The notes under the pieces were generated by a model. It ran no database searches. It was not told the DNA's origin and saw only the letters and a list, made by a program, of their open reading frames with translations. Below are positions 1-52,596 of a DNA stretch of 64,000 bases, one piece after another; positions within the stretch are counted from its first letter, which is position 1, and every line of letters begins with the position of its first letter. The DNA lies in contig JAYSSK010000206.1 in the NCBI GenBank assembly GCA_043720595.1, positions 7,016 through 71,015 on the forward strand, in the 5' to 3' direction. The position numbers were made by a program, and so were the translations under genes. Origin of the DNA: Acidimicrobiia bacterium. GTDB lineage: Bacteria; Actinomycetota; Acidimicrobiia; Acidimicrobiales; JANYDT01.

Positions 1-2
1 TG

Positions 3-599
3 TACCAGGGAGGCATGGAAGTGCTGCTCGCACTTGTGCTCCCAATCCCTGTGCTGCTGTCGGTGGTTGGTCGAGCCGCGGTGACTTCCGTTTACGGACC
101 TTCGTACGCAAGTGCGTTCCGGCCGATGATGGCGCTCGCCATCGCCCTCGTCATGATCGTCGCGAACGTCTGGCAGGGGTTTGCCCTTGTGGCTGCGGGG
201 AACCAACGAGCGACGTTGTTCGCAGTCGGTCCAGCCATTGCAATCAACATTGCCATCGACGTGCCTCTGGTCATTCGGTATGGACCGCTCGGCGCAGCGC
301 TCGGCACGCTGGCAACTGCGGCGTTTCTGGTCACGTGTTCGTCGAGAGCGGTCACACGAATAACTGGCTGTCGCCTTGATCAGGCACGGCTGTTGCGTCT
401 GTCCGGGTGTGCGGTCGCACTGTGGGTCGTCGGCGCCGGGTTCCAAGCTGCCACTCAGAGTCACTGGTGGATCACCAGCGTGGTGGTGGGCAGCGCATGG
501 GTGCTGCTCCTCTGGTTGACAGGGTCTGTCCGCATGCCACTACAGGGTGATGGTGTTGGTCAAAGCGTTCGGTACGACGTTGGGTCCGGTGTGTCATGA
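3..599 (+). CDS. Polysaccharide flippase (Wzx/MATE-like), C-terminal part, truncated by the window edge
   Basis: Frame is open to the window start. Multiple TM helices and a typical Wzx C-terminal pattern (INIAIDVPLVIRYGPLGAALGT). First gene of a GT operon. Confidence 0.8.
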   Translation, partial: YQGGMEVLLALVLPIPVLLSVVGRAAVTSVYGPSYASAFRPMMALAIALVMIVANVWQGFALVAAGNQRATLFAVGPAIAINIAIDVPLVIRYGPLGAALGTLATAAFLVTCSSRAVTRITGCRLDQARLLRLSGCAVALWVVGAGFQAATQSHWWITSVVVGSAWVLLLWLTGSVRMPLQGDGVGQSVRYDVGSGVS

Positions 600-1708
600 G
601 CGCCTCAGTGAGCCAGAGCGACGGGCCGCCTGCAGGGCTGGACGCAGACCAAGCTAGGCACGCTTACGTTCCAGGGTTTTCGATTGTGATGCCCACATAC
701 AACCGATGCGACGTCGTTGATAGGACGATTCGCCAACTCCTTGCAGTTGACTATCCGGCGGATCGGTTTGAGATCATCGTTGTGGACAATTCAACGGACG
801 GAACACCGGCCATGGTGGCGCGGCACCATGCGGAGACGGCCGGAAGGGTTCGGCTGCTGTCGCTACCAGAACGGCTTCCCGCGATCAAACGCAATCGCGG
901 CCAGGACGAGGCATCGCACGAGTACGTGCTCTTCATCAACGACGACGTTTGGGTTGAACCTCAGTTCCTGGCGGAGCACGCGCGGAGTCACCTGTCCCAT
1001 CCAGAACCGGTAGCCGTCTTGGGATACGTCCGACAATCGGCGGAAATGGAGCAAACCCCATTCATTCGCCACTACCAACCGTTCGCCTATCACGAGTTAG
1101 CCGATCGAGCGGATGCGAAGGTTGGATGGCTCCACTTCTGGAGCATGAACCTGTCGATGCCTCGATCGACCATCCAGGAACGAAACCTTCGATTCCACGA
1201 GGACTGGGCCGAAATCGGCAACGAGGACGTCGAACTCGGGTACCGCTGGGTCAACCGCGCCGGATTACCCGCGGTCTATAACCCTCTGGCCTCCGGTGAA
1301 CACTTCCACCCCCACACGGTCGCGAGCGCTGGGGCTGTCCAAAGGTCCATCGGCAGAGGACTTCGCGACCTCACCCATTTGATCCCCGAGCGAACGCTTC
1401 TGGACCGGTACGGAGTTCTGTCGCTACGGAGTTCGCCACGTGGTCTCGCGCGAGGTGTCGTGCGGGAACTGCTCTTCAACCGGTACACGGTGCCACCGCT
1501 CACTCGATGGCTCGATGGGCTCCCGGCCGAATCAGACCAACGCATTGCTCGGTGGATGTACTGGAAAGTGTTGATGCACCACGTCAACGCCGGTTACCGC
1601 TCTGCGCCTGGCCGGACGCCGAGCCCGTTGCCGGTTCACCCGCCGCGCCATCCGGACTCGGACCCGATTGCAAGTACAACGATTGGCGCTGGACGAGCAG
1701 GAACATGA
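596..1708 (+). CDS. Glycosyltransferase family 2
   Basis: FSIVMPTYNR, EIIVVDNSTDGT, LFINDDV and EDVELGYR GT-A motifs. ATGA overlap with the flippase stop. Confidence 0.92.
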   Translation: MSASVSQSDGPPAGLDADQARHAYVPGFSIVMPTYNRCDVVDRTIRQLLAVDYPADRFEIIVVDNSTDGTPAMVARHHAETAGRVRLLSLPERLPAIKRNRGQDEASHEYVLFINDDVWVEPQFLAEHARSHLSHPEPVAVLGYVRQSAEMEQTPFIRHYQPFAYHELADRADAKVGWLHFWSMNLSMPRSTIQERNLRFHEDWAEIGNEDVELGYRWVNRAGLPAVYNPLASGEHFHPHTVASAGAVQRSIGRGLRDLTHLIPERTLLDRYGVLSLRSSPRGLARGVVRELLFNRYTVPPLTRWLDGLPAESDQRIARWMYWKVLMHHVNAGYRSAPGRTPSPLPVHPPRHPDSDPIASTTIGAGRAGT

Positions 1709-3246
1709 ATAGCTTCACCTCGTTACCCGAACAACAACCCACCCACGCAATGGTCAGCCGCGTGCGTCAAATCATGTTGGTGCTTGGTTCGGCCGGCGTG
1801 GCGTGGTTTGGTGCGTTGCTGGGATTGAAGTTCGTGGCAGCGCTCGCCGTCGCGGCGTGTTTCGTCAGTCTGCTCATCGTCACAAAACGACGCGACGAGG
1901 TCCTGCTCCTCACAGCCACTGTTTCCGTAGCGCTGGTGATTCGAAAATCGCTCGGGACTCTCACCTTCGTGCCGAGCGGAGCTGCCGGACTGTACGTGTC
2001 CAGCTTGGACTTGGTTGTCGTCATGATCTACGGGTTCTGGTTGTTTGAAGGAACGCTGTGGGCCGATCTCAAACGTCTGTGGACACGACGAGTGGTACAG
2101 GTCGTGATTTTGTGGCCAGTGTTCGTGTTGCCAAGTTTCGTGGTGGCAGGAAACGCAGGCCTGGCCTTTGCCGAACTGGTCCGCATGGCGTCGTGCACGG
2201 CTTTGTTCATTGCGTTCGCAGCCAGAGTTCGCACTCGACGCCACGTCCAGATCGTTCTTCTCACGCTTGCTGCTGTGGGGGTGGTCGAATGCATGATTGT
2301 GGTCGCGCAAAAGGCTACGCGAGGCCCACTGGGGCTTTCGTTCCTCGGGACACCGACGACCATGGTCGCAGGCCGCGTCACCGAGGCGGGCGTACTCGAC
2401 CGGCCATTCGGCACGATCAATCACCCGGTATTCATGGGAGCGGTACTCGCCCAGATCGGCCTGCTTGCTTTTGCCGTCACACTCGGCCTCCGCAATCCAC
2501 GTCATCGCCTGCTGGGCCTCGGAGTAGCTGGCGCTTGTGGGCTGCCGCTCGTGTTGTCCCAGACACGCGCCGCAGCACTTGGCGTAGGTGTCATTGCACC
2601 GCTGTTGGTGCTCTGGGCGTTGGCGACCAAGCGATTGGAGCCGCGGCTTGCTGCAGTGTGGGTGGCGGGAGTCGTGGCCTTGCTCGTCGTATCGCTTCCG
2701 ATAACGGTGCCGCTCTACAACGACAACTTTCAAACCGACCACTTCGGAGTCGAGGTCGAATCGAGGACACAACTCAACTCGCTCGCCATCGAAATGTGGG
2801 GCGATTCGCCGCTACTCGGCGTCGGCTTGAACAACTTTCAACCGGCCTCGCAGCGGTATCAAGACCCATCATTGATCTTTGCCGGAAACCCGGTGCACAA
2901 CGTGTACCTGCTGCAACTCTCCGAAACAGGGATCATCGGCACGGGGGGGTTCCTCGCCGCAATGGTTGCCGTGGTGATACTCGCACTCCGACTTTCGCGA
3001 AGCAGTGACCGCTTGTACAGCGCTTTGGGTGCCGGTCTGGTCGCAGTCATTGGTTTCTTCGCGATCGAAGAGATGCTTCTGTTCGCGCTCCGGCAGGAAT
3101 CCCCGCGAACGCTCTTCTGGATGCTCGCGGGCCTCGGAGTGGCGACCGATGGAATCGCACAGCGCGCCTCCACGGAGCGCGTGCCTGCCGTGACGTCTGC
3201 TCCTGTGGACATACCCGTCAGTTCTGGTCTACCGGTGTCGATGTGA
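1705..3246 (+). CDS. O-antigen ligase/Wzy_C family integral membrane protein (polymerase, ligase or O-oligosaccharyltransferase)
   Basis: Many TM segments; RPFGTINHP, LSQTRAA, PLLGVGLNNF and PVHNVYLLQLSETGIIG motifs. Start placed at ATG 1705 (ATGA overlap with the GT2 stop) rather than ORF-track 1507. Confidence 0.85.
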   Translation: MNSFTSLPEQQPTHAMVSRVRQIMLVLGSAGVAWFGALLGLKFVAALAVAACFVSLLIVTKRRDEVLLLTATVSVALVIRKSLGTLTFVPSGAAGLYVSSLDLVVVMIYGFWLFEGTLWADLKRLWTRRVVQVVILWPVFVLPSFVVAGNAGLAFAELVRMASCTALFIAFAARVRTRRHVQIVLLTLAAVGVVECMIVVAQKATRGPLGLSFLGTPTTMVAGRVTEAGVLDRPFGTINHPVFMGAVLAQIGLLAFAVTLGLRNPRHRLLGLGVAGACGLPLVLSQTRAAALGVGVIAPLLVLWALATKRLEPRLAAVWVAGVVALLVVSLPITVPLYNDNFQTDHFGVEVESRTQLNSLAIEMWGDSPLLGVGLNNFQPASQRYQDPSLIFAGNPVHNVYLLQLSETGIIGTGGFLAAMVAVVILALRLSRSSDRLYSALGAGLVAVIGFFAIEEMLLFALRQESPRTLFWMLAGLGVATDGIAQRASTERVPAVTSAPVDIPVSSGLPVSM

Positions 3247-5417
3247 AACGGGGTCGAGCCCGATGCGCGCGTATCGTATGTGCACATGTCGTCCTTTCTC
3301 TGCTTCTGACAAATCGGGCAGTCGCTACCGTCCAGCCCGCTCAACCGGTGCCGGCGACGGTCCAGGCCTCCACAACCGAGGACTTGGACATACTGCTGGG
3401 TGGCGCCGAACGCTCAACCGGGCGTCACCGAGTCTTTCGGGTCGTCGATGGCCGACCCGTACCGATCTCGCCACCAGGAGAGTTGGACTTCTTCTGGCCC
3501 GCTTGGGCATTCGGAGGCACCAAGATCGTGTTGTCCGCTCGGACCGGAGCGGAGGGTTCTCCCGAACAGATCTATTTGATGAACCCAGACGGCACAGGTT
3601 TGGAACAACTGACCGCAAATCCGTGGCGCAATCAGCAGCCCAAAGTGTCGCCGGATGGCCGCTCTGTAGTTTTCACATCGTCCTGGTCCGAGTTCGAACA
3701 CATCGCGCTGTATCGCTTGGACCTTTCTTCACTTGAGGTCACCAATCTGTCGGCCAAGACGAACCGCGTGGGAGCGTTCGACGCCGACCCACGGTTCGCG
3801 CTCGGCGGAACACGAATCGTTTTCGCCAACACCATCCGCGACGACCTGGTGAAGACCGTCCCGACACAGATCGATTCCATGGCGCTTGACGGATCCAACC
3901 GGCGTCACCTCGTTACCGATGCCGCGTACAACGTGGACCCCGCTCTGTCACCCAATGGCCAGCTGTTGACGTACAGCTCGTATCGGGGGAAGGGAAACCC
4001 GCGCAGCGACATCGCCGGGGGTGTCGAGGTGAAACTCGACAAATGGTTCCTCCCGATCCGTAACGTGCGCACTGGCAAAGAGGTGTTGGCCAACAAAGCG
4101 ATGAACTGCGCAGTGCGGGCGCCGGAGGATGCGTGCTCGGCCGACCTTCCATCTGCGTTCAATCCGGTGTGGCGTCCCGACGGAACCGGGCTCGGATACC
4201 TCGCAGCGTTGAGCTCGCGCACGATGTGTTTGTGTGTCGTCGACGCTGATGGAAAGCGAGCCCGTGTGCTCGTACCGACTGACGACATTGCGTTGACGTG
4301 GGCCGATTGGAAGGACTTGTCGGCAGCGCCGTCGTCCGCCGTGGTTTCCCAGCTCAAAGCCATCGGAACTCAACGAAGTACGGACCGCCTGCTGTTTGTC
4401 GCCGCGCGTGGATCCGGGCCTGGATCCATCTGGACATCGTCCGTCGACCGTTGGGGTGAAACCGCCGTGCCGCTACCAAACGGCTTCGACGTACAGACCG
4501 CGCGTTGGAGCGCTGACCGCCGCCGAATCGTCTTCGCCGCCCGGGCGCCGCTCACAATGATCGAACTTGGATTCACGCCGCGAACTGGTCCGAGGCGCAT
4601 CAGGCACTTCCCATCCACAGTTCTCGGTGTCGACATCGTCGACGTTGATCCCACATTGCAGGTCTTCATGGTGAACACCGACGGAACCGGGCTGCAGCGA
4701 TTGACAACGCCGACCATCGAAGACTGGCGCGACGCAGTACCTGACGGTGAATTGCGGTCGAACACCGACCCTGACCTTTCCCCCGATGGTACGAGGGTGC
4801 TCGTGACAAACCAGTCGCCTACCGGCGAATCGTTTCTCCTCTCGATCGATCTCCGAGACGGCACGATCGTCAATTTGACCAACGCAACGTCCGGAACGCA
4901 AGCCGTCACCGACACCACGGGTCGATACTCGCCCGACGGTAAATTGATCGCCTTCTCGAGCAACCTCGGTGCCGATCGGCAGATCATGACAATGGCCGCT
5001 GACGGCACCCGCGTGCGGGCATTGACGGACATCGCCGGAATCACCGCAAGCCCAGCGTGGTCGTCCGATGGCCGCCGCGTCGCGTTCGCGATGAACCTCT
5101 CGCCGGAGCCTCTTGGTGCGAAGGGAAGGCGGGCCGCTCAACCCGGCCTTGACTTGGCGCAGGCAGACCTCGCAGGCGTAGGCAGGTGGCAAGTGGCGAG
5201 CGTCGACGTTGCGACCCGCCGAACTCGCACATTGACCACACCCGACCCTGCTGGTGCGTTCTTGCCGACCTGGTCTCGTGATGGGCGGAACGTTTTGTAC
5301 ACCTCGTTGACGTCGCAGGGCAACACCGACCTACGCATCGTGGACACCACCTCGCTCGTTCAGCGACCACTCCAAATCACACAGCAGATGCGGGAGGTGT
5401 CAAGTGACTGGCGATGA
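3243..5417 (+). CDS. Secreted TolB-like (PD40 repeat) beta-propeller protein, probably two propellers
   Basis: Repeated P-x-(W/L/V/Y)-S-P-D-G blades (PKVSPDG, PALSPNG, PDLSPDG, YSPDG, PAWSSDG, PTWSRDG), IYLMNPDGTGLEQLT, N-terminal signal-like segment. GTGA overlap. Confidence 0.85.
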   Translation: MKRGRARCARIVCAHVVLSLLLTNRAVATVQPAQPVPATVQASTTEDLDILLGGAERSTGRHRVFRVVDGRPVPISPPGELDFFWPAWAFGGTKIVLSARTGAEGSPEQIYLMNPDGTGLEQLTANPWRNQQPKVSPDGRSVVFTSSWSEFEHIALYRLDLSSLEVTNLSAKTNRVGAFDADPRFALGGTRIVFANTIRDDLVKTVPTQIDSMALDGSNRRHLVTDAAYNVDPALSPNGQLLTYSSYRGKGNPRSDIAGGVEVKLDKWFLPIRNVRTGKEVLANKAMNCAVRAPEDACSADLPSAFNPVWRPDGTGLGYLAALSSRTMCLCVVDADGKRARVLVPTDDIALTWADWKDLSAAPSSAVVSQLKAIGTQRSTDRLLFVAARGSGPGSIWTSSVDRWGETAVPLPNGFDVQTARWSADRRRIVFAARAPLTMIELGFTPRTGPRRIRHFPSTVLGVDIVDVDPTLQVFMVNTDGTGLQRLTTPTIEDWRDAVPDGELRSNTDPDLSPDGTRVLVTNQSPTGESFLLSIDLRDGTIVNLTNATSGTQAVTDTTGRYSPDGKLIAFSSNLGADRQIMTMAADGTRVRALTDIAGITASPAWSSDGRRVAFAMNLSPEPLGAKGRRAAQPGLDLAQADLAGVGRWQVASVDVATRRTRTLTTPDPAGAFLPTWSRDGRNVLYTSLTSQGNTDLRIVDTTSLVQRPLQITQQMREVSSDWR

Positions 5418-6492
5418 CCAACCTCAGGACCCCACGCGGGTCCTCATTGAATACCCGGCCGCAAGCCACATCGACAATGGGACTCGGCCGCTCCCTCTGC
5501 TCAGCGTTGTCATCGTGAGTTGGAACACAGCTGACTTGCTTGACCAGTGCTTGCGCAGCATCGCAAAAGAGGTCGGCGACACCACCCACGAAGTCATCGT
5601 GGTGGACAACGGTTCCGACGATGGGAGCGCCGACTTGGTGCGTCGCTTGTGGCCGAACACCATTCTGATCGTCAACGAGTCCAACCAGGGCTATCAACGG
5701 GCCAACAACCGAGGAATGGCAGCGGCCCGCGGAGAACGACTGTTGCTCCTCAACGCTGACGCGTGCTTGCTTCCAGGATCGCTCACGATCTTGATGAGCA
5801 ACCTCGATCGAGACAACACCATCGGTGTCGTTGCGCCGAGATTGGTCTATCCCGATGGCAGTTGGCAGCGTTGGACAGCAGGCCGCGAGCCAAGTCTGGT
5901 CGGTGCGTTCGCATTCTTCCTCTTTCTCGAACGCATCTCGCGACGCTTTGCTGATTGTTCGTTGTGGCTGTACTCGGACACCGCCGAGGCGTTCAGTCCT
6001 GATTGGGTTTCAAGCGCTTGTCTGATGCTGCGCAGGGACACCCTCGCAGACACCGGACCGATGAACGAACGGTTCTTCGCATACATGGATGACGTTGATC
6101 TGTGTCGCCTTGCACGTAGTGCGGGTTGGACCGTCCGATATGACCCGGCTGCCACGGTGATGCACGTGATGGGCGCCGGAACTCGGCGGCGGACCGGTGC
6201 CGCCTCGCCGCTCGCGCTCCGCACGTTCAACCAGTACTTCGCCAGCCTTCACAGCGCCCCCCAGACGGCACTTCTCAAAGCCGTCGAGGCAATTGGTTTC
6301 GCTGCCCGCGTAGTCGCGCACGTCGCCCTCCTCGTGGCCGACCCGATTCACCATCGCAAGGCGATTCGGACGCAGTGGCGAAACACGGTGATCGCGCTCG
6401 AACGAATGAAGACACTTCCCGCCGCGCCGACGCACACAACACCGACGCACACAACACCGAGGCACACACCACAACCCAAAGGAGCACCATGA
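5404..6492 (+). CDS. Glycosyltransferase family 2 (WbbL/rhamnosyltransferase-like)
   Basis: LSVVIVSWNT, VVDNGSDDGS, LLLNADA, WVSSACLMLR and FFAYMDDVDLC motifs. Confidence 0.9.
   Translation: MTGDDQPQDPTRVLIEYPAASHIDNGTRPLPLLSVVIVSWNTADLLDQCLRSIAKEVGDTTHEVIVVDNGSDDGSADLVRRLWPNTILIVNESNQGYQRANNRGMAAARGERLLLLNADACLLPGSLTILMSNLDRDNTIGVVAPRLVYPDGSWQRWTAGREPSLVGAFAFFLFLERISRRFADCSLWLYSDTAEAFSPDWVSSACLMLRRDTLADTGPMNERFFAYMDDVDLCRLARSAGWTVRYDPAATVMHVMGAGTRRRTGAASPLALRTFNQYFASLHSAPQTALLKAVEAIGFAARVVAHVALLVADPIHHRKAIRTQWRNTVIALERMKTLPAAPTHTTPTHTTPRHTPQPKGAP
6427..6471 (+). repeat. 15-bp tandem repeat x3 (CCGACGCACACAACA, third copy degenerate) encoding PTHTT-like units
   Basis: Read directly at the 3' end of the GT2 CDS. 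Confidence 0.85.
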
Positions 6493-7430
6493 ACGTACTC
6501 GTCACCGGCGCAGGAGGCATGCTCGGAAGCGCGCTCGTACCGGCCTTCGTAGAAGCCGGCTACCACGTGATCGCCACCGACTGTGACGTGGCCACCGGCC
6601 CTGTATGGGGGAGGAACGGCCCACCGCTCTTTTACCTGGACGTCCGAGACCACGTCGCGGTCAAAGAAGCAGTGAAGTCGATCCGCCCCACATTCGTTGC
6701 ACACCTAGCGGCAGAAACGGACCTCGAACGATCCGATGCCGATCCTGTCGGGACCCGGGAGACCAACACGGCTTCGACCAGGCACATCGCGGAGGTGTGC
6801 AACGACGCAGGCTCGACGTTGATCTATATCAGCACTGCTGGTGTGTTCGACGGGACGAAGGACGATGCGTATACCGAGGCCGACGCACCGAACCCCATCA
6901 ACACATACGGAGCGACAAAGTTCGAAGGAGAGGTAGCCGTTCGCGAAACCATCGCTGCACATTTCATCGTGCGCGCCGGATGGATGGTGGGCGGAGGGCC
7001 GGGAAAGGATCACAAGTTCGTTGCCAAAATGATCGATCAGATACGAGCTGGTCGAAACACCATTCACGCTGTCGGCGACAAACTCGGAACTCCTACGTAT
7101 ACATTCGACTTTGCCCGCACTCTGCTCGCGCTGATCCACAGCGACAAATTCGGTTTGTACCACATGGCATGCGAGGGAGAAGGCAGTCGATACGACGTCG
7201 CGAAACACATTCTGCAGACACTCGGCCTCGATGATTCGACGAAGCTCATCGAGGTCGGTTCAGAGTTCTTCGCGCACGAATACACCTCCTTGCGGCCCCG
7301 CTCAGAGATCATGCGCAACGACGCTCTCGATCGGATCGGAATGAACATGATGCGCCCATGGCGCGAGGCCATCTCGGACTATCTGTGGCTCAACTTTGCC
7401 GACATGCAACGGGTTCGCCGGTCTGCTTGA
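6489..7430 (+). CDS. rfbD: dTDP-4-dehydrorhamnose reductase (RmlD)-like extended SDR
   Basis: MNVLVTGAGGMLG Rossmann motif, PNPINTYGATK (YxxxK), DKLGTPTY, GLYHM. ATGA overlap and GGAG SD at 6481. Confidence 0.8.
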   Translation: MNVLVTGAGGMLGSALVPAFVEAGYHVIATDCDVATGPVWGRNGPPLFYLDVRDHVAVKEAVKSIRPTFVAHLAAETDLERSDADPVGTRETNTASTRHIAEVCNDAGSTLIYISTAGVFDGTKDDAYTEADAPNPINTYGATKFEGEVAVRETIAAHFIVRAGWMVGGGPGKDHKFVAKMIDQIRAGRNTIHAVGDKLGTPTYTFDFARTLLALIHSDKFGLYHMACEGEGSRYDVAKHILQTLGLDDSTKLIEVGSEFFAHEYTSLRPRSEIMRNDALDRIGMNMMRPWREAISDYLWLNFADMQRVRRSA

Positions 7431-7534
7431 CCTGATTCCCTTCTCGACGCCCGAATGCGCCGACCAGACCTCCCCACCCACACGAGTCCGAAGCACCAGA
7501 CGCCACCGGCACGACTTACCTAGGAGCATCCGCG

Positions 7535-8644
7535 ATGAACATCTCCCCCCTTTCGACCATCAACTCGCCAGACCCCACGTCGCAGGACGACGCACCATCC
7601 GACACGGCAATTGACCTGCGGCGCGTCGCTGTCGTCATTCCGATGCCCAACGACCCGGACTGGGCACTGTTCGATGACCTCTCGCAAGACATCACCGTTA
7701 TCGTTCCCGACGACAGCGATGGGCACCTGACACCACCCGATAGGGCGAACGTTCTGTTCTACGACTACGACGCCCAGCGCGAGGTCATGGGGAAGAACTG
7801 GGACGCCATCCCACACAAGAGCGCTGCGTGTCGCAACTTCGGACACGTGCTCGCCTATCGCGAGGGATACGACGTGATCATTGCGTTGGACTATGACTGC
7901 CGTGTGCGACCGGGCTGGCTCCAAACCCATCTGGAGTCGCTCACCACCGTGGTTGACGCTCCGGCTCTCAAAGGGGAGTGGATCAACTCCATCACGGCAA
8001 AAGGCTTCTACGCCCGCGGATACCCCTACGAGTGGCGCACCCCGGACCGATCTCGCGTGGAGGAAACCTTCGCCTCTGGCCCCGTGAAGATCAACATGGG
8101 AGTCTGGGACAACGTCTTGGACCTGAACGGGGTCGACAAGCTGCCTAGCGAGCCTCCGTACGACCCTGGGCTGTACGGCGAAGAAAACCGCATCGCTCTC
8201 GGCAACATCCCGGTGTGCGGGATGAACACATCGTTCACGGCAGACTTGACGCCCGCATACTTCTTCCTCCCAGATGTGTGGGTGGATGGCTGGCAGCTCA
8301 GCCGCCATGACGACATCTGGGGTGGTTATGTCCTGAAGAAGTTGATGGACCTCCGAGGTGATCTGTTTTCGTTCGGTCGTCCGATCGTGGAGCACACCAA
8401 GCAAACTCGCCTCGAGCGGGTAGTGATGTTGGAGCAGTGGATGCATTTGATGGCGGAAGGTTTCTTCCAATGCGTCGATGCGGCCGTGAGCCGAGTGCGA
8501 CCGGGCGACTACGCGACAATGTTCGCCTCCTTCACCGACGAGTTCCTCGTCGAGGCGTCAAGGAGCCCCCGACCAACGCATTACAGGGGCGTCTACCGAG
8601 AATTGGGCGAGTCGATGCAGCGGTGGGCCCGGTGCTTCGAATGA
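7535..8644 (+). CDS. Reversibly glycosylated polypeptide / UDP-arabinopyranose mutase (GT75)-like protein
   Basis: Collinear match to plant RGP/UAM motifs: KSAACRNFG, ALDYDC, RGYPYEWR, GVWDNVLD, PVCGMNTSF, SRHDDIWGG, GRPIVEHTK. AGGAG SD. Confidence 0.8.
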   Translation: MNISPLSTINSPDPTSQDDAPSDTAIDLRRVAVVIPMPNDPDWALFDDLSQDITVIVPDDSDGHLTPPDRANVLFYDYDAQREVMGKNWDAIPHKSAACRNFGHVLAYREGYDVIIALDYDCRVRPGWLQTHLESLTTVVDAPALKGEWINSITAKGFYARGYPYEWRTPDRSRVEETFASGPVKINMGVWDNVLDLNGVDKLPSEPPYDPGLYGEENRIALGNIPVCGMNTSFTADLTPAYFFLPDVWVDGWQLSRHDDIWGGYVLKKLMDLRGDLFSFGRPIVEHTKQTRLERVVMLEQWMHLMAEGFFQCVDAAVSRVRPGDYATMFASFTDEFLVEASRSPRPTHYRGVYRELGESMQRWARCFE

Positions 8645-8654
8645 GGCGACAGAC

Positions 8655-9812
8655 ATGAAGGTGATGATCGACTGCGCTGCGCTTGGGTCGGGCCTCGGCG
8701 GAGACGAAACCTGGCTAACCGGTCTCATCGAGGGCCTTGCCGCTGTCACGGACACAACGACCACCGACTGTTATCCGCTGCTGGTCGATTCGGCGGAACG
8801 CGTTCCACACGCAGCGAGAGGTCAGCAGTGCTTTCCATTGGTTCCCGTCCGTCGACACCGAGGTCTCCGCCACTTCACGTTTGACCTTCGTCCCGCAACG
8901 AAACATCCCCAGCACGCAGACCTTCTGATGACCATCACGCACGCGCCGATGCGACCCCACGTCCCGTCGGCCCTCGTCATCGGCGACCTTTCGTTTCGAC
9001 ATCTTCCGCAGCTGTACCCCAGCCCGGTGCGTCAGCGATTGAATTGGCTCGTACCACAGCAAGCGAGACAGGCCCAGGTCGTGCTTACCCCAAGCGAATA
9101 TTCTCGCCAGGATCTGATCGAGTCATACAACCTTGACCCTGAACGGGTCTATGTCGTGCCGAATCGTGTAACCCTCCACGACCCTCGCGACGTCGCCGAC
9201 CACGAGAACGCGGCCAATATAGTATGGGCACGAACGAATGGCATTGACCGGCCGTTCCTGCTGTATCTGGGAAACGTGCACCCGCGCAAAAACTTGGGTC
9301 GCCTGGTCGAGGCATTCTTGATCGCTCGACAAAGGCCCGAGATGCATGACGCAGTTCTCGTGATTGCTGGAGCACGTTGGTGGGAATCCCCAGAAGGGCA
9401 GGCGTCCATGTCAGCAGCCCCAACCGGCTCTGTCATCGAAGTCGGTCGGGTGACCGACAGCATCCGTCATTGGCTTCTCGGAAATGCAGTTGCACTGGCG
9501 TATCCGTCATTGTTCGAAGGGTTCGGACTACCGCCTCTTGAAGCAATGGCCCATGGCACACCGGTCCTCGCTTCCAATTGCACATCGCTGCCCGAAGTGC
9601 TCGGCGACGGAGCGTTGTTGGTCGACCCCTACGACGTGGAGTCCATCGCGGTTGGGCTGACATCGTTGTGGACCGACTCGGGCCTGCGCAGATCGCTACG
9701 CGCCGCTGGTCAGCAACGTGCCGCACAGTTTGATTGCAGCCGAGTCGGTCGTGCTGCTGTCACAGCGTTTCGTTCGTCTGTGGGTCCAGAACGTATTGGG
9801 ATCGCGTCGTGA
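8655..9812 (+). CDS. Glycosyltransferase family 4 (GT-B)
   Basis: [34 protein letters not shown] and SLPEVLGD motifs. Confidence 0.93.
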
Positions 9813-10426
9813 ACGGACAGATCGGGATGCGAGAAGCGCTGCGTCAGGACTTCGAGGCGTGCATGGCGCTGGACCATCTGCGGCCCCGCGGGCTGCGGCG
9901 AACGTTCGACGTATTGACCCAGTCCGGATTTCTGACGGTCGTGTTGTTCCGCGTTGCCCACGCAGCTCATCTCCGTGGTTGGTTCCCATTGGCACGATTC
10001 CTCCTGCTTTTGATGGTGATTCTCTTCAGCGCCGAGATCTACCCGCAGGCTCGAATCGGCCCTGGTTTCGTGATCGCGCACCCCATGGGTGTAGCGATCG
10101 GCGCCGGCACCGTCATTGGCCCGAACGTTCAGGTTTACAAGGGTGCATCCATCGGCACCGCCGGGCTCCGCGACCCAGATCTCGATGGTTTTCCTACAAT
10201 CGAAGAAGGGTGCAAGATCTTCGATGGAGCCAAGGTGTTCGGGCCCATCACGATCGGAGCCCACAGCCGCATCGGGGCCGGGGTACTGCTGCTCCAGACA
10301 GTCCCACCGCACTCAACGGTGTTCGCACCGCAAGGCCAGGTTCGTACGGCGTCTCCCGAGGAACTGGCTGGCATCGAGCCGAAACACCTGATGAACGATC
10401 GAGAGGACCCCGTATGGGCGCCGTAA
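9809..10426 (+). CDS. Serine-acetyltransferase-like hexapeptide-repeat (LbH) O-acetyltransferase
   Basis: AEIYPQARIGPGFVIAHPMGVAIG and PTIEEGCKIFDGAKVFGPITIG. Start at GTG 9809 overlapping the GT4 stop. Confidence 0.85.
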   Translation: MNGQIGMREALRQDFEACMALDHLRPRGLRRTFDVLTQSGFLTVVLFRVAHAAHLRGWFPLARFLLLLMVILFSAEIYPQARIGPGFVIAHPMGVAIGAGTVIGPNVQVYKGASIGTAGLRDPDLDGFPTIEEGCKIFDGAKVFGPITIGAHSRIGAGVLLLQTVPPHSTVFAPQGQVRTASPEELAGIEPKHLMNDREDPVWAP

Positions 10427-11439
10427 AAAAGCTGCTGCTCGGGACCGTCCTCTCGGCAGCGGTCGGGGTGGGCATCGTTGCCCTCATCGCGTCGAAAGTG
10501 AACCGCGTCCCATCGGTGCCATCCGGTTTTGTTGCTCCAACCTCGCTCGTCGCTTCGTCGGCCCTGCTGAGTCCGACAGACATCGTTTTCGATTCGAACC
10601 GCACCGGAAATTTCGAGATCTGGGTCATGGCCGGTGACGGCGGCGCACAGCGCCAACTCACTTCTGACACGCAGACAGACGCGTGGTGGCCCCGCCCATC
10701 ACCCGACCGCCGACACATTCTCTTCAACCGTGTGCCAGCAGGTGTTCACGACACGAAGACAGCAAGCGTTTCGCTGTGGGTGATGGACTCCAACGGTAGG
10801 AACCAACGGCTACTCAGACCGCCAGGACTGGACGGGTGGGGCCAACAAGGGCACGCCGAATGGTCCCCCAGCGGCAACCAGTTGGTGATGTTCGGCGGCA
10901 GCACGCTGAACCCACAGATCTATCTCACGGATGCAACCGGTCAGTCTCCGCGAGCGCTCACGGACCGAGGAGGAACAAACATCGATCCGTCTTTTGCTCC
11001 TGACGGACAGACCATTACGTTCGTAGGATGCCCTCGGTCGTTCTGTCAGGCGAGCGACTACGAGATCTATACCGTTGCCGTGACAGGCGGCCCGGTGACA
11101 CGGATTACTGACGATAATCTGCGCGACCACGACCCGTACTTCTCTCCGGACGGCAACCAACTCGCATGGCTCACCGAAGTGACCAAGCCATCGAAGAGCG
11201 ACCCAACCGGAGCTTGGGACGTCCGCTTGTCCGACGCGTCAGGGGCCGGGATCAAACGGTTGACGAACGACACGCACATCACAAGCCGGCCGATCTGGGC
11301 CCCAGATGGCCAGTCCGTATTGGTCCACCGCCTCGAAAAGGGAACGGACACATCATTCCAACTGTTCCGGATTCAAGTGGCGACGGGCGCAATCACACGC
11401 CTGACCTCCGGACCATCAGTCAACGAGTACCCCGGCTAG
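10414..11439 (+). CDS. TolB-like (PD40) beta-propeller protein with N-terminal membrane anchor or signal
   Basis: IVFDSNRTGNFEIWVM, PRPSPDR, AEWSPSG, PSFAPDG, PYFSPDG, PIWAPDG. Hydrophobic N-terminus from ATG 10414. Confidence 0.88.
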   Translation: MGAVKKLLLGTVLSAAVGVGIVALIASKVNRVPSVPSGFVAPTSLVASSALLSPTDIVFDSNRTGNFEIWVMAGDGGAQRQLTSDTQTDAWWPRPSPDRRHILFNRVPAGVHDTKTASVSLWVMDSNGRNQRLLRPPGLDGWGQQGHAEWSPSGNQLVMFGGSTLNPQIYLTDATGQSPRALTDRGGTNIDPSFAPDGQTITFVGCPRSFCQASDYEIYTVAVTGGPVTRITDDNLRDHDPYFSPDGNQLAWLTEVTKPSKSDPTGAWDVRLSDASGAGIKRLTNDTHITSRPIWAPDGQSVLVHRLEKGTDTSFQLFRIQVATGAITRLTSGPSVNEYPG

Positions 11440-11457: not shown

Positions 11458-12981
11458 TCATCGGCGGGTTGCGGCCGCCCGTGTCAACCGATCTATGACC
11501 GCCGGTGAAAGGCCCTCGGCGTCTGCCGGAGGTTCAACGAGCAGCAGATCAAATCCTGCGATGTCCGCTTGACGTAAGCGCGCGTACAAAACAGCGGCAA
11601 GAGTCGCTCCGGTATACGGGAGCGGCGCGTCGATCTTGGCGGCTCCGGCCGGACCAGAGCCTGGTCCGAGGTAACCCACCCGGCTCCACTCCCCCGGCGG
11701 GATCGGGCTTCCCGGTTCGACTAACAGGACGGCAGCGCGGGGCGCATAGTGGCTGGCCAGCATTCCGGGTGCACGGCTAGGGCCCGATGCAACGGCCTGC
11801 ACAGGGCGCCCGATCACAGCCGCGATTTCGTCTGCGCTAATTGCTCCCGGGCGCAACACCTGCGCGTTGCCGTCAGCCAACTCGACAATGGTGGATTCGA
11901 CGCCAATCACACACGAACCACCATCGAGAATCGTGTCGACCAGACCATCTGCGTGCACATGATCAGCACACGTAGGACTGACGGCGCCGAATCGATTAGC
12001 AGATGGTGCAACCAGTCCCGCGTGCTCGCCACATAGAGCGATGAGCGCGAGCGATAGCGGGTGACGGGGTACGCGCACAGCAATTGTGTCGCGCCCGCCG
12101 GTGACCTCGTCGAGAACGTGTGCTTGACGCGGGAGCACAATGGTCAGCGGTCCTGGCCAGAACGCAGCAGCCAGTCGACGGGCGTCGTCGGTGACCACCG
12201 CCCAGGTGGACAACGAAGCTGCCGACGCGATGTGAACAATCAGCGGATGGTCGATGGGTCTGCCCTTTGCCGCGAACACCGAACGAACAGCAATCGGGTT
12301 GGCGGCATCTGCAGCCAACCCATAGACCGTCTCGGTTGGAATAGCGACAAGGCCACCCCCGCGAATGATCTCCGCTGCTTGCTCGACAGGGCCGGGTCCC
12401 TGGCTGTCGCGATCGGCCAGATCGAGCGCCCGCGTCATCACGATCGGCGCAGGAGAGTTGGGCGAAGCGTGCCCATACAAGCGATCAGGCGTCACGACAT
12501 AACCAATGCGCGCATACCATCGAACCAACTCCGGTTGAAAGGCACTCACCGCTAGCAGGGTCTCCGTTGCCCCGGTGGCTGCAGCGGTTTCGTGGGCTGC
12601 CTTTATCAGCGCTGTCCCAATGCCACTTCCGAACCATTGAGGAGCGCTGGCCACCTTGGTGACTTCTGCCGTACCGATACTGCGCTCATAGCCACGTTGA
12701 GGGCCATCCGCCGGGTTGCCGACACCAGAGGGGATCACCGAAACGGAGCCGACCAAGACACCCTGGTCGAACGCACCGAGCACCACAGCACCCTCGTCGA
12801 TCAATGCTCTAAGTGACTCGGGTCTGAGCCGCTGACCGCTCGAACGCGCATCGACCCTGGCGGCCCAAGCCGCGCGAATCAGGTCCACAACGGCGGTCTC
12901 TTCCTCGGCGCCAACAATCTGCCGGATCTCCAATCGGCCCGACTGCCCGATTGCCTGCCCGATTGCCTGCCCGATAGCCAC
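11458..12981 (-). CDS. sua5: GNAT acetyltransferase fused to Sua5/TsaC2 L-threonylcarbamoyladenylate synthase
   Basis: N-terminal GNAT (VASAPQWFGSGIGTALI, WYARIGY) in frame with AIPTETVYGL, KGRP..HPLIVH, APSANRFG, GVESTIV and PGMLASHYAP. Confidence 0.9.
   Translation of the reverse strand: MAIGQAIGQAIGQSGRLEIRQIVGAEEETAVVDLIRAAWAARVDARSSGQRLRPESLRALIDEGAVVLGAFDQGVLVGSVSVIPSGVGNPADGPQRGYERSIGTAEVTKVASAPQWFGSGIGTALIKAAHETAAATGATETLLAVSAFQPELVRWYARIGYVVTPDRLYGHASPNSPAPIVMTRALDLADRDSQGPGPVEQAAEIIRGGGLVAIPTETVYGLAADAANPIAVRSVFAAKGRPIDHPLIVHIASAASLSTWAVVTDDARRLAAAFWPGPLTIVLPRQAHVLDEVTGGRDTIAVRVPRHPLSLALIALCGEHAGLVAPSANRFGAVSPTCADHVHADGLVDTILDGGSCVIGVESTIVELADGNAQVLRPGAISADEIAAVIGRPVQAVASGPSRAPGMLASHYAPRAAVLLVEPGSPIPPGEWSRVGYLGPGSGPAGAAKIDAPLPYTGATLAAVLYARLRQADIAGFDLLLVEPPADAEGLSPAVIDRLTRAAATRR
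12943..12978. repeat. 12-bp tandem repeat x3 (CTGCCCGATTGC) encoding AIGQ x3
   Basis: Read directly; third copy has one mismatch. Confidence 0.9.
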
Positions 12982-15266: not shown

Positions 15267-16283
15267 GTGAGTGGGTCATCACATCGACGCGAAGACCGAC
15301 CGGATTGGGCGCAGGCCAACCCGGTGCGGATCGACGCGGCGCTCGCCCGAGCGCTGGTCAAGCCATCCGGTGGCTGGTTTGTGTTGGGCGCGTCACGGAC
15401 CTACGGCGGGTCGAGCCGGCACGTGATTGCCAAACTGTCGCCGCTGCGACGAGGCCCGTCCAAAGTGTTGGGTCCTTGGCGCGAGACAGTTGCCGATCAG
15501 GAGTTGGTGTTGTGGCGCACCGAGCCCGGCGGACCGCTTCACATTGCACCTGGCTCCTGCCCCCATATGGGTGCCCATCTCGCCGACGGATCGGTCCGTG
15601 ACGGGTGCCTTGTGTGCCCTTGGCACGGACTATCGCTCGACGAACCCCATGGGCAATGGCGGCAGCTTCCGGTTCACGACGACGGGATCTTGGTGTGGGT
15701 GCAACTCGAACCAACGGCCGCTGACGCACTCAGCGCCCCCGTGCTCCCCAAGCGACCTGATGTCTTCCTCGACGGCGTGACCCGAGTCGATGCCACATGC
15801 GAACCAGCCGACGTGATCGCCAACCGCCTCGACCCATGGCACGGCGCACACATCCATCCGTACGCGTTCACGGCCTTGCGCGTGATCGACGAGACCGACG
15901 ATGCAATCGATCTGGTCGTGGCGTACAAGGTGGTCGGCTCGTACGCCGTCGAAGTCACCGCCCGGTTCGAAACCCCCGAGCCAAGGACGATCGTGATGAC
16001 GATCATCGATGGCGAAGGCACGGGCTCGGTCGTCGAAACGCACGCCACCCCCATCGTGTCTGCGACCGCCAACCGATCGCCGCGCACCGCCGTGATCGAG
16101 GCGACACTGGCGACGTCTGACCGCCCAGGTTTCGCGTACGCCTTACGCGGAGCAGCGATCGCCAGGCCGATCATCAAGCTGTCAGCTGCACGGCTCTGGA
16201 AGGACGACGCCAGGTACGCCGAGCGGCGCTACCACCAGCGCGTCGCTCTAGGCAACCCTCGACCCACCAACTCAAGCCTTTGA
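15267..16283 (+). CDS. crtV: Rieske [2Fe-2S] domain protein of carotenoid clusters (CrtV/DUF5914-like)
   Basis: CPHMGAHL and CPWHG Rieske motifs, DVIANRLDPWHGA, SVVETHATP, RLWKDDARYAERRY. Lies near crtU/crtT. Confidence 0.75.
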   Translation: MSGSSHRREDRPDWAQANPVRIDAALARALVKPSGGWFVLGASRTYGGSSRHVIAKLSPLRRGPSKVLGPWRETVADQELVLWRTEPGGPLHIAPGSCPHMGAHLADGSVRDGCLVCPWHGLSLDEPHGQWRQLPVHDDGILVWVQLEPTAADALSAPVLPKRPDVFLDGVTRVDATCEPADVIANRLDPWHGAHIHPYAFTALRVIDETDDAIDLVVAYKVVGSYAVEVTARFETPEPRTIVMTIIDGEGTGSVVETHATPIVSATANRSPRTAVIEATLATSDRPGFAYALRGAAIARPIIKLSAARLWKDDARYAERRYHQRVALGNPRPTNSSL

Positions 16284-16322
16284 CCGGCAGTCACGCCAGC
16301 ACGATGAGATCACTGGGCGGAC

Positions 16323-16394
16323 TCACCGAGTCAGGTCGATCAAATCGGATCGACCCACCCGGATCCGGTTGCCGTTCGGGTCGATCACGGTGAA
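16323..16394 (-). pseudogene. Possible C-terminal remnant of a VOC/glyoxalase family gene
   Basis: Minus-strand frame reads FTVIDPNGNRIRVG then stop, matching the DPxGN terminal motif. An in-frame stop lies shortly upstream. Confidence 0.35.
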
Positions 16395-16493
16395 CAGGTT
16401 CAGCGGAGCGGCTCGAACTATGCAGCCGCGTACACGTCATTGGCCGTCGTCGATCGCAGGGTTGAGTATCCCGGGCGACGCGCTCGGCAACGT

Positions 16494-17468
16494 TCAGTTC
16501 GCCAACCGAGGTGGAAACAGCGTGCAATTGTTAGCGATCCCGCCGACATAACACTCATACGCTGGATCGACAGCCGTGTATCGAAGGTCGAGATCGATCG
16601 CGCTGGCTGTGCCGCGCAGCGGTCTGATCGCCACCGACAGATGCGTGAAGTCGTTCCCCGGGTTTGGCAGAACAGCCGGAGAAGCGGAATCGAAGTTGAC
16701 GCACCCCGCAGATTTCCAAACCGCCGGCAGGGTCTTGCCTCGCCACCCGCCTGGACACGCGACAAGCCTCACCGTTGAGTTCGTCGAGAGAGTGATGACC
16801 CCGGCCTTGGGATGAAACTGTTCGATCTGAGCCACGATGGAAGTCGAGATGGTGACTCGCTCGACACGGAGCCATACCTTGGCGGGTAGTTCCTCGAGGA
16901 CGCCTACCGCGCGGACATCGACCGGGAACGAACTTGATGCCAGATTCTTGAGCCGTGACAGGTCAGCGCTGTGCATCCACCCGACCACCGTCAGGCCACC
17001 GCCACCCCACATCGCACTGAACCTCGAATTTCCGGAGATTTCGGAAAGCACCTCGACCGCGGCCGGAATCGACTCGCCGACATAGGTGGCCTCGCCAGGA
17101 ACTGTCCGGAGCGTCACGCACACCGTGCGCCGGTTCAGTTCGCCGCGCTCATCGACGACACCGATCAGCGCGGTTCGGAGCGGTTCCGCATCGACCCGAG
17201 TCGTCCGGCCTGTGAACGCGATGGTTCGGCGGTCGAACTCCACCCGAAGGTCTCCGTTGGCGGCCGAAGGAACCGCTGGCGTGCACTGTCTGATGGTCAG
17301 CGCTTCAGCGCTCGGGGTTGCGTGGGCGAACAGGATCACCAGGACGAGCAGCGCGATGCCAGAGCAACGGATCGAACGCACACAACCAGTTGATCGCGCC
17401 GATGCCGCTGTACATATCCGAGGAACGGTTCGCACTCTGCGGCCGGGCAGCATCTCTCTATTGCTCAC
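16494..17468 (-). CDS. Hypothetical secreted protein (start uncertain)
   Basis: Signal-peptide-like IALLVLVILFAHATPSAEA; several Cys; no recognised domain. Confidence 0.6.
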   Translation of the reverse strand: MSNREMLPGRRVRTVPRICTAASARSTGCVRSIRCSGIALLVLVILFAHATPSAEALTIRQCTPAVPSAANGDLRVEFDRRTIAFTGRTTRVDAEPLRTALIGVVDERGELNRRTVCVTLRTVPGEATYVGESIPAAVEVLSEISGNSRFSAMWGGGGLTVVGWMHSADLSRLKNLASSSFPVDVRAVGVLEELPAKVWLRVERVTISTSIVAQIEQFHPKAGVITLSTNSTVRLVACPGGWRGKTLPAVWKSAGCVNFDSASPAVLPNPGNDFTHLSVAIRPLRGTASAIDLDLRYTAVDPAYECYVGGIANNCTLFPPRLAN

Positions 17469-18597
17469 CGGTGCAATGCCGACGAAGTGCTACGCCAGCT
17501 TCGAACAACGCATCGCAAACTCGGGCCAATGCGGTGGGCGACGTGACCAGCCCGGCACGGTCGTTCGGAGTGTGGAAATCCATCCCAGCACCACTGATCG
17601 AGAGCATCGGCAGATACAGGTGCTGAAGCACCTCCCCCTCGCCGACCCAATGAGGTGACGACGCGGTCAGCTTCAAGCCAATGGATGCAAGAGCTCCGTC
17701 GATTGGTTCGATCGCAGACTGGTTCAAGGACGTCATCGCTCTGCGAGTTGCGATGAGTTGGCGACCGTCGGAGCCGTCGGATTCGACCGCAACCGACGCA
17801 CCGATGTGCATGATGCAACCCAGCTCGGGGTCGACACTCCGGTCTCCCGTCAGCTGTTGCGCAACCCAGTGTTCCGCGCCGAGATAGCCCAGTTCGTGGC
17901 CGCCAGTGGCAACGACGAAGATCGGCCCACCGAGAATAAGCCGACTGACCAATTCGAGTAGCACTGCGACCCCGGTCCCTCGCTCGCCGGCGCAACCGAA
18001 CCATCCGGTGAGCGGCGTCGTCAGCATCAGATGCTTTCCGGGTCGACCATTGTCGGCAAACACGTTGGTCGTGCTCAGTGGCATCGTCTGAGCAGACGCT
18101 CGAACATGCACGACGCCGGACTGCAGGACGCTCAACTCGGTGCCAGCGACAAGGAACACCGGGAAATTGGTCGGGTCTACGTGCAACGGCCGGTTGATCG
18201 CCCGCAGCAACCCGGAGGGATGGCGCGTTGCGCAGACTGCGGCCTCGAAGCCAGCCTCACGGGCTCGGCGAACGGGCTCGGCTATAACCGAGATGTCGCC
18301 GCCGAGCCCCGGCTCAAGGTCGATGACGGCAACCCGGTCGGTGTCGATCGTTCCCTGCCACTCGTACGGCACGGGCAGGCACTCGACCTCGTGCTGACCC
18401 ACCCGAATGGTTGCGTCGGAATGCCAGCCCGTGAAGTTGACGGTCTCTCGACGGACGGAAAGCCCGGCAAGCTCTAGGTGTTCGGTCAACCAATCGGCTG
18501 TCTCTAGGTCCACCGAGGAACCAGTTCGGTGAAAACCGAGTGCCTCGTACTCAGCCACTAAACGGAAGAGTTGATCTGGAGAACGACCAGGTCCCAT
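17458..18597 (-). CDS. Hypothetical protein with PA-domain / M28 peptidase-like architecture
   Basis: HRTGS, GERGTGVAVLLEL, GGHELGYLG and FHTPND resemble the M28 scaffold. Confidence 0.55.
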   Translation of the reverse strand: MGPGRSPDQLFRLVAEYEALGFHRTGSSVDLETADWLTEHLELAGLSVRRETVNFTGWHSDATIRVGQHEVECLPVPYEWQGTIDTDRVAVIDLEPGLGGDISVIAEPVRRAREAGFEAAVCATRHPSGLLRAINRPLHVDPTNFPVFLVAGTELSVLQSGVVHVRASAQTMPLSTTNVFADNGRPGKHLMLTTPLTGWFGCAGERGTGVAVLLELVSRLILGGPIFVVATGGHELGYLGAEHWVAQQLTGDRSVDPELGCIMHIGASVAVESDGSDGRQLIATRRAMTSLNQSAIEPIDGALASIGLKLTASSPHWVGEGEVLQHLYLPMLSISGAGMDFHTPNDRAGLVTSPTALARVCDALFEAGVALRRHCTGEQ

Positions 18598-18692
18598 GTG
18601 CGAAGACTACGACCGGTGCGTCAACGTCAGATTCACGATCACCATTCGCGCGTTGTAGGGGCTGCAGGCCGCGAGAGTGACACGGGCGGACG

Positions 18693-20228: not shown

Positions 20229-20977
20229 ACCGGCCTCCGAGCAAGAAACGAATGCACCACGCCGTCTTGCCAGAAATCGAAGCGGGCCTTGCCGACCACC
20301 GGCCTGGTGCGCACGCCCGCGAAGCCGTGCGAGGTGAGGCGCGCTTCGAATGCCTTGACGCCATCGAACTGCAAGACGCTTCGCCACAGGTACCGATAGA
20401 TCCGTGTGTGACGGCTGGTGATGAGACCGGCAGGGATGATGATCCCCCAGCACACGCTCGTCCACGTGCCGATGGCGCGGGGCGAGTCTCGAACGCTGTA
20501 CTCGTGAAAGCAGATCGGCGCACCGGGCTTGAGTAGCCCCTTCACCCGCTCAAGACACACGTCAGGATCGGCCATGTTGCGAATCCCGTATGCCATCAGA
20601 ATCGCATCGAAGGGTTCGTCGCCCAAGGTTGCCGCAGGATCCATCGCATCGCCCAATACGAATGAGACGTTCGGTGAGTCGATGAACATCGGCTTGGCTC
20701 GCGCTTGGGCAAGCATCCCAGCGGAAGCATCGAGCCCCACAATCGTCGCCGCGGGGTACGCGGAGAGCACGCCAGCAGTCGACAAGCCTGTACCGCAGCA
20801 AAGGTCCAAGATCCGCAGACCGGCGCCAGAGGCACCGAGCTCCAACCGTTCGGCGCTCAACGCGAGGTGCTCCACGTAACCCGGGTTTCGCTGCACAAGA
20901 GTGTCGTATGTGCCCGCGACGATGTCGAAGTCGGCAGGAACCTCTCGTTTGCGCTGGCTGAACGGCTTGGGAGTCAC
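20225..20977 (-). CDS. crtT: UbiE-like class I SAM methyltransferase of carotenoid clusters
   Basis: ILDLCCGTG, GLDASAGML, AYGIRN, HEYSV and YRYLWRSV. Translationally coupled to crtU. Confidence 0.75.
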   Translation of the reverse strand: MTPKPFSQRKREVPADFDIVAGTYDTLVQRNPGYVEHLALSAERLELGASGAGLRILDLCCGTGLSTAGVLSAYPAATIVGLDASAGMLAQARAKPMFIDSPNVSFVLGDAMDPAATLGDEPFDAILMAYGIRNMADPDVCLERVKGLLKPGAPICFHEYSVRDSPRAIGTWTSVCWGIIIPAGLITSRHTRIYRYLWRSVLQFDGVKAFEARLTSHGFAGVRTRPVVGKARFDFWQDGVVHSFLARRPV

Positions 20978-52428: not shown

Positions 52429-52496
52429 GTCAGGTCTCGGTTGTGGTGGTGGTGTCGGGTGCGGTCGAATGCGACCGGGCTGGTTTCATGTGTGTG

Positions 52497-52548
52497 CCGG
52501 TTGTCAGTGCACCGGTTGTCAGTGCACCGGTTGTCAGTGCGCTGACAA
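52497..52548. repeat. 15-bp tandem repeat x3 (CCGGTTGTCAGTGCA) ending in an inverted CTGACAA
   Basis: Read directly in the gyrB-gyrA intergenic region. Confidence 0.9.
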
Positions 52549-52596
52549 TCACTTGGGGAAAAGGCTGTGGAATCTGTGGGTGACCGTGCACAGGGC

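Follow-up and report, generated by a model that had tools for sequence, protein, structure and literature searches.

The 64,000-nucleotide stretch analysed here (the window), from contig JAYSSK010000206.1 of an Acidimicrobiia bacterium, opens with ten co-oriented genes (positions 1..11439) belonging to a 13-gene operon that is, by its gene content, of the Wzx/Wzy surface-polysaccharide type. Two of its genes encode TolB-like propeller proteins, which we call PropA and PropB. We propose that PropA, predicted to be exported, is the dedicated extracytoplasmic partner of a likely Wzy polymerase encoded directly upstream, and we put the probability of this reading at about one half. As far as the literature shows, the previously undescribed element is a family of propellers linked to a single Wzy subfamily through gene adjacency and recurrent fusion: a search of the open-access literature, with supplements outside its scope, found no description of a Wzy–propeller fusion, and the excerpted passages that mention propellers or TolB-like proteins concern other systems.

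The evidence comes first from gene order. PropA was found in 13 distinct genomes, and the same Wzy subfamily lies directly upstream of it in all 13. An earlier note on this DNA had pointed out that one propeller gene directly follows the Wzy_C gene; the tie proves stronger than was first seen, with the two fused in nine of the genomes and split in four. A single Wzy–PropA open reading frame (ORF) of 1236–1441 codons is present in G001, G004, G020, G024, G153 and G203, the Wzy frame of G178 continues through a signal-like segment into the propeller at the contig end, and in G093 and G1055 PropA is in frame with a C-terminal half of Wzy bearing one frameshift. Separate Wzy and PropA genes are found in G000, G003, G380 and G561. 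GT75 lies downstream of PropA in 12 genomes, the remaining contig ending earlier; upstream, 12 genomes have priming transferase, Wzz and Wzx, and the remaining contig shows Wzx only. The co-occurrence of Wzy_C, PD40 and GT75 suggested in the earlier note is thus conserved. Other operon genes (RmlD, Wzz, Hexapep and GT4) shift between genomes; the Wzy–PropA adjacency is constant.

The fusion is also seen at the level of proteins. The PropA threshold (300 bits over 380 profile positions) was passed by 82 of 257 proteins, of which 37 carry Wzy, 44 do not and one carries an M23 peptidase; the 44 include fragments and one truncated fusion, and some rows are near-duplicates. Among these 82 family proteins, no fusion of PropA to any operon gene other than Wzy was found. 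In the reciprocal search, the Wzy subfamily (E <1e-90) was present in 9 of 401 order genomes, eight of which also have PropA. Stand-alone clusters number at least 25 for the Wzy subfamily and at least 22 for PropA, which fits a near one-to-one pairing.

PropA forms a separate family, with 35 clusters at E ≤1e-99 and coverage of at least 93% among the matches listed; below it, matches drop to generic multi-propeller proteins of 22–30% identity. Profile searches placed PropA in at least 6 of 28 genomes of the family, at least 8 of 401 of the order, and at least 2 of 401 each for the class and the phylum, each count including the window genome; these are lower bounds because two candidates were scored per genome and many genomes are incomplete. 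Only five true members came out of a GTDB pattern scan, which failed to pick up those that the later profile search detected; these five full-length relatives are Acidimicrobiia/Acidimicrobiales.

A chance neighbourhood of propeller and Wzy was considered and rejected. Among 80 generic PD40 loci (582 kb in total, 27 of them of at least 8 kb, from a metagenome scan that returned generic PD40 loci only), none is flanked by a gene for Wzy, Wzx, Wzz, a priming transferase or GT75, and one has a GT2 neighbour. The view of the earlier note that both propeller genes belong to the operon is supported. An assembly artefact at the Wzy/PropA split was likewise rejected, the same split being found in G003; contigs from two possible source runs are identical to the window across the junction and do not count as independent evidence.

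All ten ORFs of window 1..11439 exist on the plus strand with the coordinates first read, and seven of the nine junctions overlap, by 4 nucleotides at 596/599, 1705/1708, 3243/3246, 6489/6492 and 9809/9812, by 14 at 5404/5417 and by 13 at 10414/10426. The other two are gaps of 104 (7430/7535) and 10 nucleotides (8644/8655). The operon extends beyond these ten genes: the first ORF is the tail of Wzx, and on the 7 kb of contig that precede the window the operon reaches back about 4.5 kb. In full it comprises 13 genes on one strand, in the order priming transferase, GT2, Wzz, Wzx, GT2, Wzy_C, PropA, GT2, RmlD-like, GT75, GT4, acetyltransferase and PropB; behind Wzx, Pfam assigns the window genes to GT2, Wzy_C, PD40, GT2, RmlD, RGP/GT75, GT4, Hexapep and PD40. 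The upstream part, on the same strand, holds a priming phosphoglycosyltransferase (L001:2501-3568, Bac_transf E 3.2e-58), a GT2 glycosyltransferase (L001:3565-4518, profile match), a Wzz/PCP co-polymerase (L001:4472-6136, Wzz and GNVR matches) and the start of the Wzx flippase (493 residues, Polysacc_synt_3 E 1e-17), which begins at L001:6133 and whose 3' part is window 1..599, plus strand. The Wzz gene is divergent, and its matches are concordant: Wzz E 4e-5 (24.1 bits vs a cut-off of 25.5), GNVR E 1.5e-4, and TIGR03007 E 1e-14, below its cut-off. Because priming transferase, Wzz and Wzx all lie in the operon, we assign the locus on its gene content to the Wzx/Wzy pathway, a known kind of pathway. 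With these genes and one Wzy_C-type gene, the 'glycosylation system' of the earlier note is less well supported. A profile search of the genome, which is 78% complete, gave no match for Wza (OPX) and three for LCP proteins; the operon has no tyrosine kinase.

Several observations weigh against PropA as the partner of a polymerase. G035 carries the full operon without PropA and PropB, its Wzy abutting the next GT2, and PropA is therefore not essential in every lineage. The Wzy_C protein (1705..3246, plus strand, 513 residues, 11 hydrophobic segments called, Wzy_C E 1.1e-16) aligns to the O-antigen ligase WaaL (7TPG, E 3.9e-15) and keeps its full Arg/Arg/His triad, R288/R354/H398 corresponding to WaaL R191/R265/H313; the available part of PMC10920833 assigns His to the ligases and Asp/Glu to the polymerases of the clan. 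Structurally, PropA is matched best by TolB and by binding propellers of LRP type, and neither a lectin nor a glycan enzyme is prominent. The rule by which cleavage motifs were called also fires on 47% of control helices, and the linker between Wzy and the propeller is poorly conserved in length (55–209 residues) and sequence, as neutral read-through would give. Absence of the propellers from homologous loci, which the earlier note had named as evidence against their role, is seen in part: G035 lacks both, and three more loci are without PropB.

PropA (3243..5417, plus strand, 724 residues, PD40) is modelled by AlphaFold2 as two self-closed six-bladed propellers of TolB type (approximately residues 48-358 and 382-723), with a pLDDT of 90.9 and a pTM of 0.89. 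Its best structural match is TolB 1c5k (Z 31.9, root-mean-square deviation 2.2 over 269 residues), LRP-type propellers coming next, and in the structure search no enzyme fold outranked TolB for either PropA or PropB. As no lectin or glycan enzyme is among the leading matches, it is context only that suggests glycan binding by PropA. Two cysteines (C289, C298) are conserved in the family as a pair, as is an acidic inserted loop (E493, D494, D497, R505 and N507); the conservation of the loop may be no higher than is usual for propeller blades. These loop residues, with H455 and Q473, are family-specific polar positions that cluster in inserted loops, and they raise the alternative that PropA is itself an enzyme (a lyase, hydrolase or transglycosylase) trimming or releasing polymer beside the polymerase. 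Oligogalacturonate lyase (Ogl; PL22) is a sequence relative of PropA, though a weak one (E 3.4e-7), and the pTM suggests that the two propellers may hold a fixed orientation, possibly forming a cleft. We nevertheless consider a catalytic PropA unlikely: sialidase- and arabinanase-like folds reach a Z of at most 19 against the value for TolB, and PropA is the less conserved of the two propeller proteins, PropB being the stronger candidate for an enzyme.

One PropA homologue, P0122, has no Wzy; its propeller is preceded by a signal peptide, a linker rich in Thr, an M23 peptidase and SLH-like repeats (SLH assigned by eye). This arrangement fits a cell-wall location.

As for the Wzy_C protein, the Arg/Arg/His triad does not discriminate between ligase and polymerase, since the motif is common to type-B polymerases. 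In its available part, PMC12502699 describes the motifs RX(11-24)GXG and HNX9GX(2-4)G (GN1 and GN2) in beta-linking pneumococcal capsule polymerases; GN1 is present in 36 and GN2 in 39 of 41 Wzy family members, and the window protein has both. Wzy_C proteins of Wzx/Wzy loci are also treated as polymerases in the part of PMC7484181 available to us. The polymerase is the better reading because Wzz is present and the operon contains no second Wzy-like gene, and on these grounds we regard the Wzy_C protein as quite probably a polymerase, likely a beta-linking one.

The triad, together with the His that marks O-ligases in PMC10920833, would also suit an O-oligosaccharyltransferase or ligase, with PropA or PropB as an acceptor glycoprotein that is glycosylated on leaving the membrane. 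In agreement with such a role, the N-terminal linkers of both propellers, although short, are rich in Ser, Thr, Pro and Ala, and a few homologues have long ones. This explanation appears quite unlikely to us, because it would leave the Wzz co-polymerase without a polymerase, because pneumococcal Wzy polymerases have the same His motif, and because G035 retains the Wzy_C enzyme without either propeller. Moreover, none of the 41 Wzy family members has a PglL_A or Wzy_C_2 domain (to our knowledge, TfpO-type transferases lack them too), and the Ser+Thr content of mature PropA, 0.16 vs 0.15 in generic propeller proteins, is not enriched. The acceptor role that the earlier note had offered for the propellers is thus weakly supported. 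Its alternative, propellers serving as scaffold or lectin components, comes near to the partner role that we propose.

The fused genes have a common architecture. In every fusion, the last Wzy helix is followed by the linker, whose cytoplasmic part is 22% Lys+Arg, and then by a hydrophobic segment, with a small-x-Ala motif usually about 20 residues ahead of the first propeller strand. A net-positive stretch precedes the hydrophobic segment in 37/37 fusions and the h-region is strong in 36/37; a cleavage-type motif is found in 35/37 fusions, 30/32 stand-alone N-termini and 161/342 Wzy transmembrane windows used as a control, the rule being a home-made heuristic and not a trained predictor such as SignalP. 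In the window, PropA starts with a predicted Sec signal peptide ending in an A-V-A motif (3243..3326, plus strand). The internal signal-like segment seen in fused relatives is homologous to this peptide. The cytoplasmic C-terminus reported for type-B Wzy in the available part of PMC12502699 is consistent with the side on which the linker would lie.

A Shine-Dalgarno-like internal start is present in only one of nine fused ORFs, and one fused ORF has no start codon at all in the linker. Since such starts are nearly absent, PropA in the fused genomes is likely made from the long Wzy–PropA product. We infer that signal peptidase I cuts PropA off the fusion; possibly the segment stays as an uncleaved anchor. 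A bolder form of the proposal, which we hold only tentatively, is that an actinobacterial Wzy lineage is made as a polyprotein in which the polymerase is followed by a cytoplasmic linker rich in Arg, by an internal Sec signal and by a double TolB-type propeller that is cut off by signal peptidase I and kept as a one-to-one polymer-guiding extracytoplasmic subunit, and that the anchored second propeller represents a new glycan-processing enzyme family. The least probable of the explanations weighed is that the fusion is incidental, a repeated loss of the Wzy stop codon made harmless by signal peptidase, with PropA in the operon and no special tie to Wzy: the linkers are variable, of low complexity and read-through-like, the fusion state flips many times on the tree and overlapping stop/start junctions are common across the operon, but RmlD, Wzz, Hexapep and GT4 change place where Wzy–PropA does not, and PropA is fused to no other operon gene.

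Built from 69 rows, 13 partial ones being excluded, the PropA tree requires 12 changes of the fused/split label, against a shuffled mean of 23.5; branches with support of at least 95 force at least seven of them. This tree and the Wzy tree (43 rows) are quick trees of uncertain root, and the Wzy sample is biased toward fusions, most members having been found via the propeller. In both trees, the window protein and its two closest relatives nest among fused forms, and therefore the split at the window locus is likely derived. In the Wzy tree, the G035 protein groups with a fused member (support 98), which suggests that G035 lost its propeller. It differs at 19 of 81 conserved positions vs 17–21 in propeller-fused members, so that the comparison is uninformative as to lost interface residues.

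Two further features of the Wzy genes should be mentioned. The single frameshift in the Wzy part of the fused gene in G093 (L126) and G1055 (L137) lies at a different position in each and may be a sequencing error or mark a pseudogene. The Wzy homologues at L022:5500-6100, L023:10517-11100, L124 and L128 are extended at the N-terminus by about 100-190 residues, a part that adds hydrophobic helices and matches no Pfam family.

PropB (10414..11439, plus strand, 341 residues, PD40) is modelled as one propeller of TolB type, preceded by a helix at the N-terminus and a linker rich in Pro (pLDDT 97.1); TolB is the nearest structure. The earlier note took both propellers to be exported, which agrees with the signal-peptide-like N-terminus of PropA; the long N-terminal helix of PropB (residues 2-29 in the model) rather looks like an uncleaved membrane anchor. 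Residues D89, R94, R106, H112, D113, H147, E149, D191, E217, D238, D240, H305, R306 and E338 are kept at 96-100% in 95 sequences, a level that may here too be usual for propeller blades, and sit at inner-strand starts and second-strand ends. Because by general propeller geometry these positions share one face, PropB would have a conserved pocket. Ogl stands at ranks 44 and 50 in the PropB structure search.

PropB is an optional member of the operon. Of the 13 PropA genomes, eight have it within the locus (G020 and G024 in two copies) and one, G178, on another contig; the loci retrieved for G093, G153 and G203 lack it. In the order it was found in 4 of 296 genomes, all four being PropA carriers. 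The PropB family is larger, with at least 120 clusters at E ≤5e-90, and PropB may therefore occur in other contexts too. A plasmid search with PropB returned four generic propellers, and a search of the ESM Atlas generic TolB/PD40 clusters only. In G020 and G024, the second PropB copy faces the first at the operon end (L019:3-1001, L020:1660-2847). A PropB homologue of 52% identity, P0312, occurs in the cultured actinobacterium Pengzhenrongella sicca.

A Tol-Pal role was rejected for both proteins, as TolB_N, the N-terminal domain of TolB, is absent from PropA and PropB by Pfam and in the models; nor did TolB_N have a match in the 78%-complete genome, in a search whose control rang in 2/14. 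The likeness to TolB is that of the six-bladed PD40 propeller, TolB being the best structural match of both proteins. Unlike TolB, PropA has tandem propellers, and PropA and PropB score 141 and 123 bits with TIGR02800 vs a cut-off of 343.

The remaining window genes of the operon, all on the plus strand, concern the glycan itself. They encode two GT2 glycosyltransferases (596..1708, 370 residues, PF00535 E 9e-23, 51-82% identity in related loci; and 5404..6492, 362 residues, Pfam), an RmlD-like NDP-4-keto-sugar reductase (6489..7430, 313 residues, TIGR01214 212 bits, under the cut-off of 224), a GT75/RGP protein predicted to be an NDP-pyranose mutase (7535..8644), a GT4 glycosyltransferase (8655..9812, 385 residues, Pfam) and a CysE/EpsC-like hexapeptide acetyltransferase (9809..10426). 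The GT75 protein keeps the DXD motif (119-121) and, as R161, D196, R257, D260 and H287, the equivalents of Arg159, Asp195, Arg257, Asp260 and His287 of MtdL, one of the GT75 NDP-pyranose mutases, to which plant UAM/RGP also belong (PMC9937993, available part). Since these catalytic residues are kept, GT75 likely supplies a furanose donor, and the furanose suspected in the earlier note is plausible. Unlike MtdL, the window protein has Ala in place of Asp87 and Gly-Met in place of Ser228-Gln229, and it stands in a surface-polysaccharide context and not in an antibiotic one. O-acetylation, also suspected earlier, is plausible: the acetyltransferase is CysE/EpsC-like, with scores that stay under the curated thresholds for the two models. 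A methyltransferase gene is present in addition in several related loci, and acyl-CoA dehydrogenase and AMP-binding genes in G561. In the G035 operon (L156:12375-13547), GT75 is followed by an unannotated ORF and a methyltransferase.

Known partners of Wzy polymerases are Wzz and, in diderms, export proteins of the outer membrane. In the model we propose, the priming transferase and four glycosyltransferases would build a lipid-linked repeat unit including a furanose from GT75, Wzx would flip it, and Wzy would polymerise it with Wzz. In the fused forms, the Wzy C-terminus would stay cytoplasmic as the Arg-rich linker and the internal Sec signal would thread PropA outward, signal peptidase I then releasing it to give one propeller per polymerase; in the window genome, the overlapping stop/start at 3243-3246 would maintain the same Wzy:PropA ratio. 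PropA may bind the growing chain and help to hold it or hand it on, an LCP protein encoded elsewhere may attach the polymer to the wall, and PropB, where present, would be anchored in the membrane and have a conserved pocket, and may be an enzyme that trims the glycan.

Compared with known systems, the operon shares a priming transferase, glycosyltransferases, Wzx, a Wzy_C polymerase, Wzz/PCP and a serine-acetyltransferase-like gene with the Wzx/Wzy pathways for Myxococcus xanthus exopolysaccharide (PMC7484181) and pneumococcal capsule (PMC12502699), and with the latter also the GN1/GN2 motifs of type-B Wzy, as far as the excerpts of these papers go. Unlike these systems, the window genome gave no OPX/Wza match and the operon has a GT75 mutase and no tyrosine kinase; its fused or coupled double propeller and optional anchored propeller find no mention in those excerpts. 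The Wzy_C protein differs from WaaL (GT121) in sitting with Wzz and Wzx in an actinobacterial operon and in the C-terminal propeller fusion of its relatives.

A parallel for the proposed processing would be fbcH of Bradyrhizobium, reportedly a cytochrome b-c1 polyprotein in which one ORF encodes a polytopic membrane protein together with its exported partner and the product is cut at an internal signal-like sequence, although a literature check did not confirm this. It concerns a respiratory complex of unrelated proteins, whereas cleavage in Wzy–PropA is only predicted. If the proposal is true, Wzy–PropA would add to the bacterial membrane polyproteins that carry a signal peptide internally, as one whose gene has been split in two repeatedly; PropA would offer a soluble, easily purified component for studying the handling of Wzy products in monoderm actinobacteria, and two families of unexplained TolB-like proteins would gain a function in context.

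Outside the operon, the window contains other gene groups. Convergent with the operon end, at 11458-12981 on the minus strand, is a GNAT acetyltransferase fused N-terminally to a Sua5/TsaC threonylcarbamoyl-AMP synthase. Positions 15267-20977 encode a Rieske/DUF5914 oxygenase, a flavin amine-oxidoreductase-like protein and a methyltransferase, a set that we take to be reminiscent of an actinobacterial carotenoid cluster. The replication-origin gene region occupies 49945-63596, with gyrA, gyrB, recF, dnaN and dnaA on the minus strand, followed by yidC, jag and gidB.

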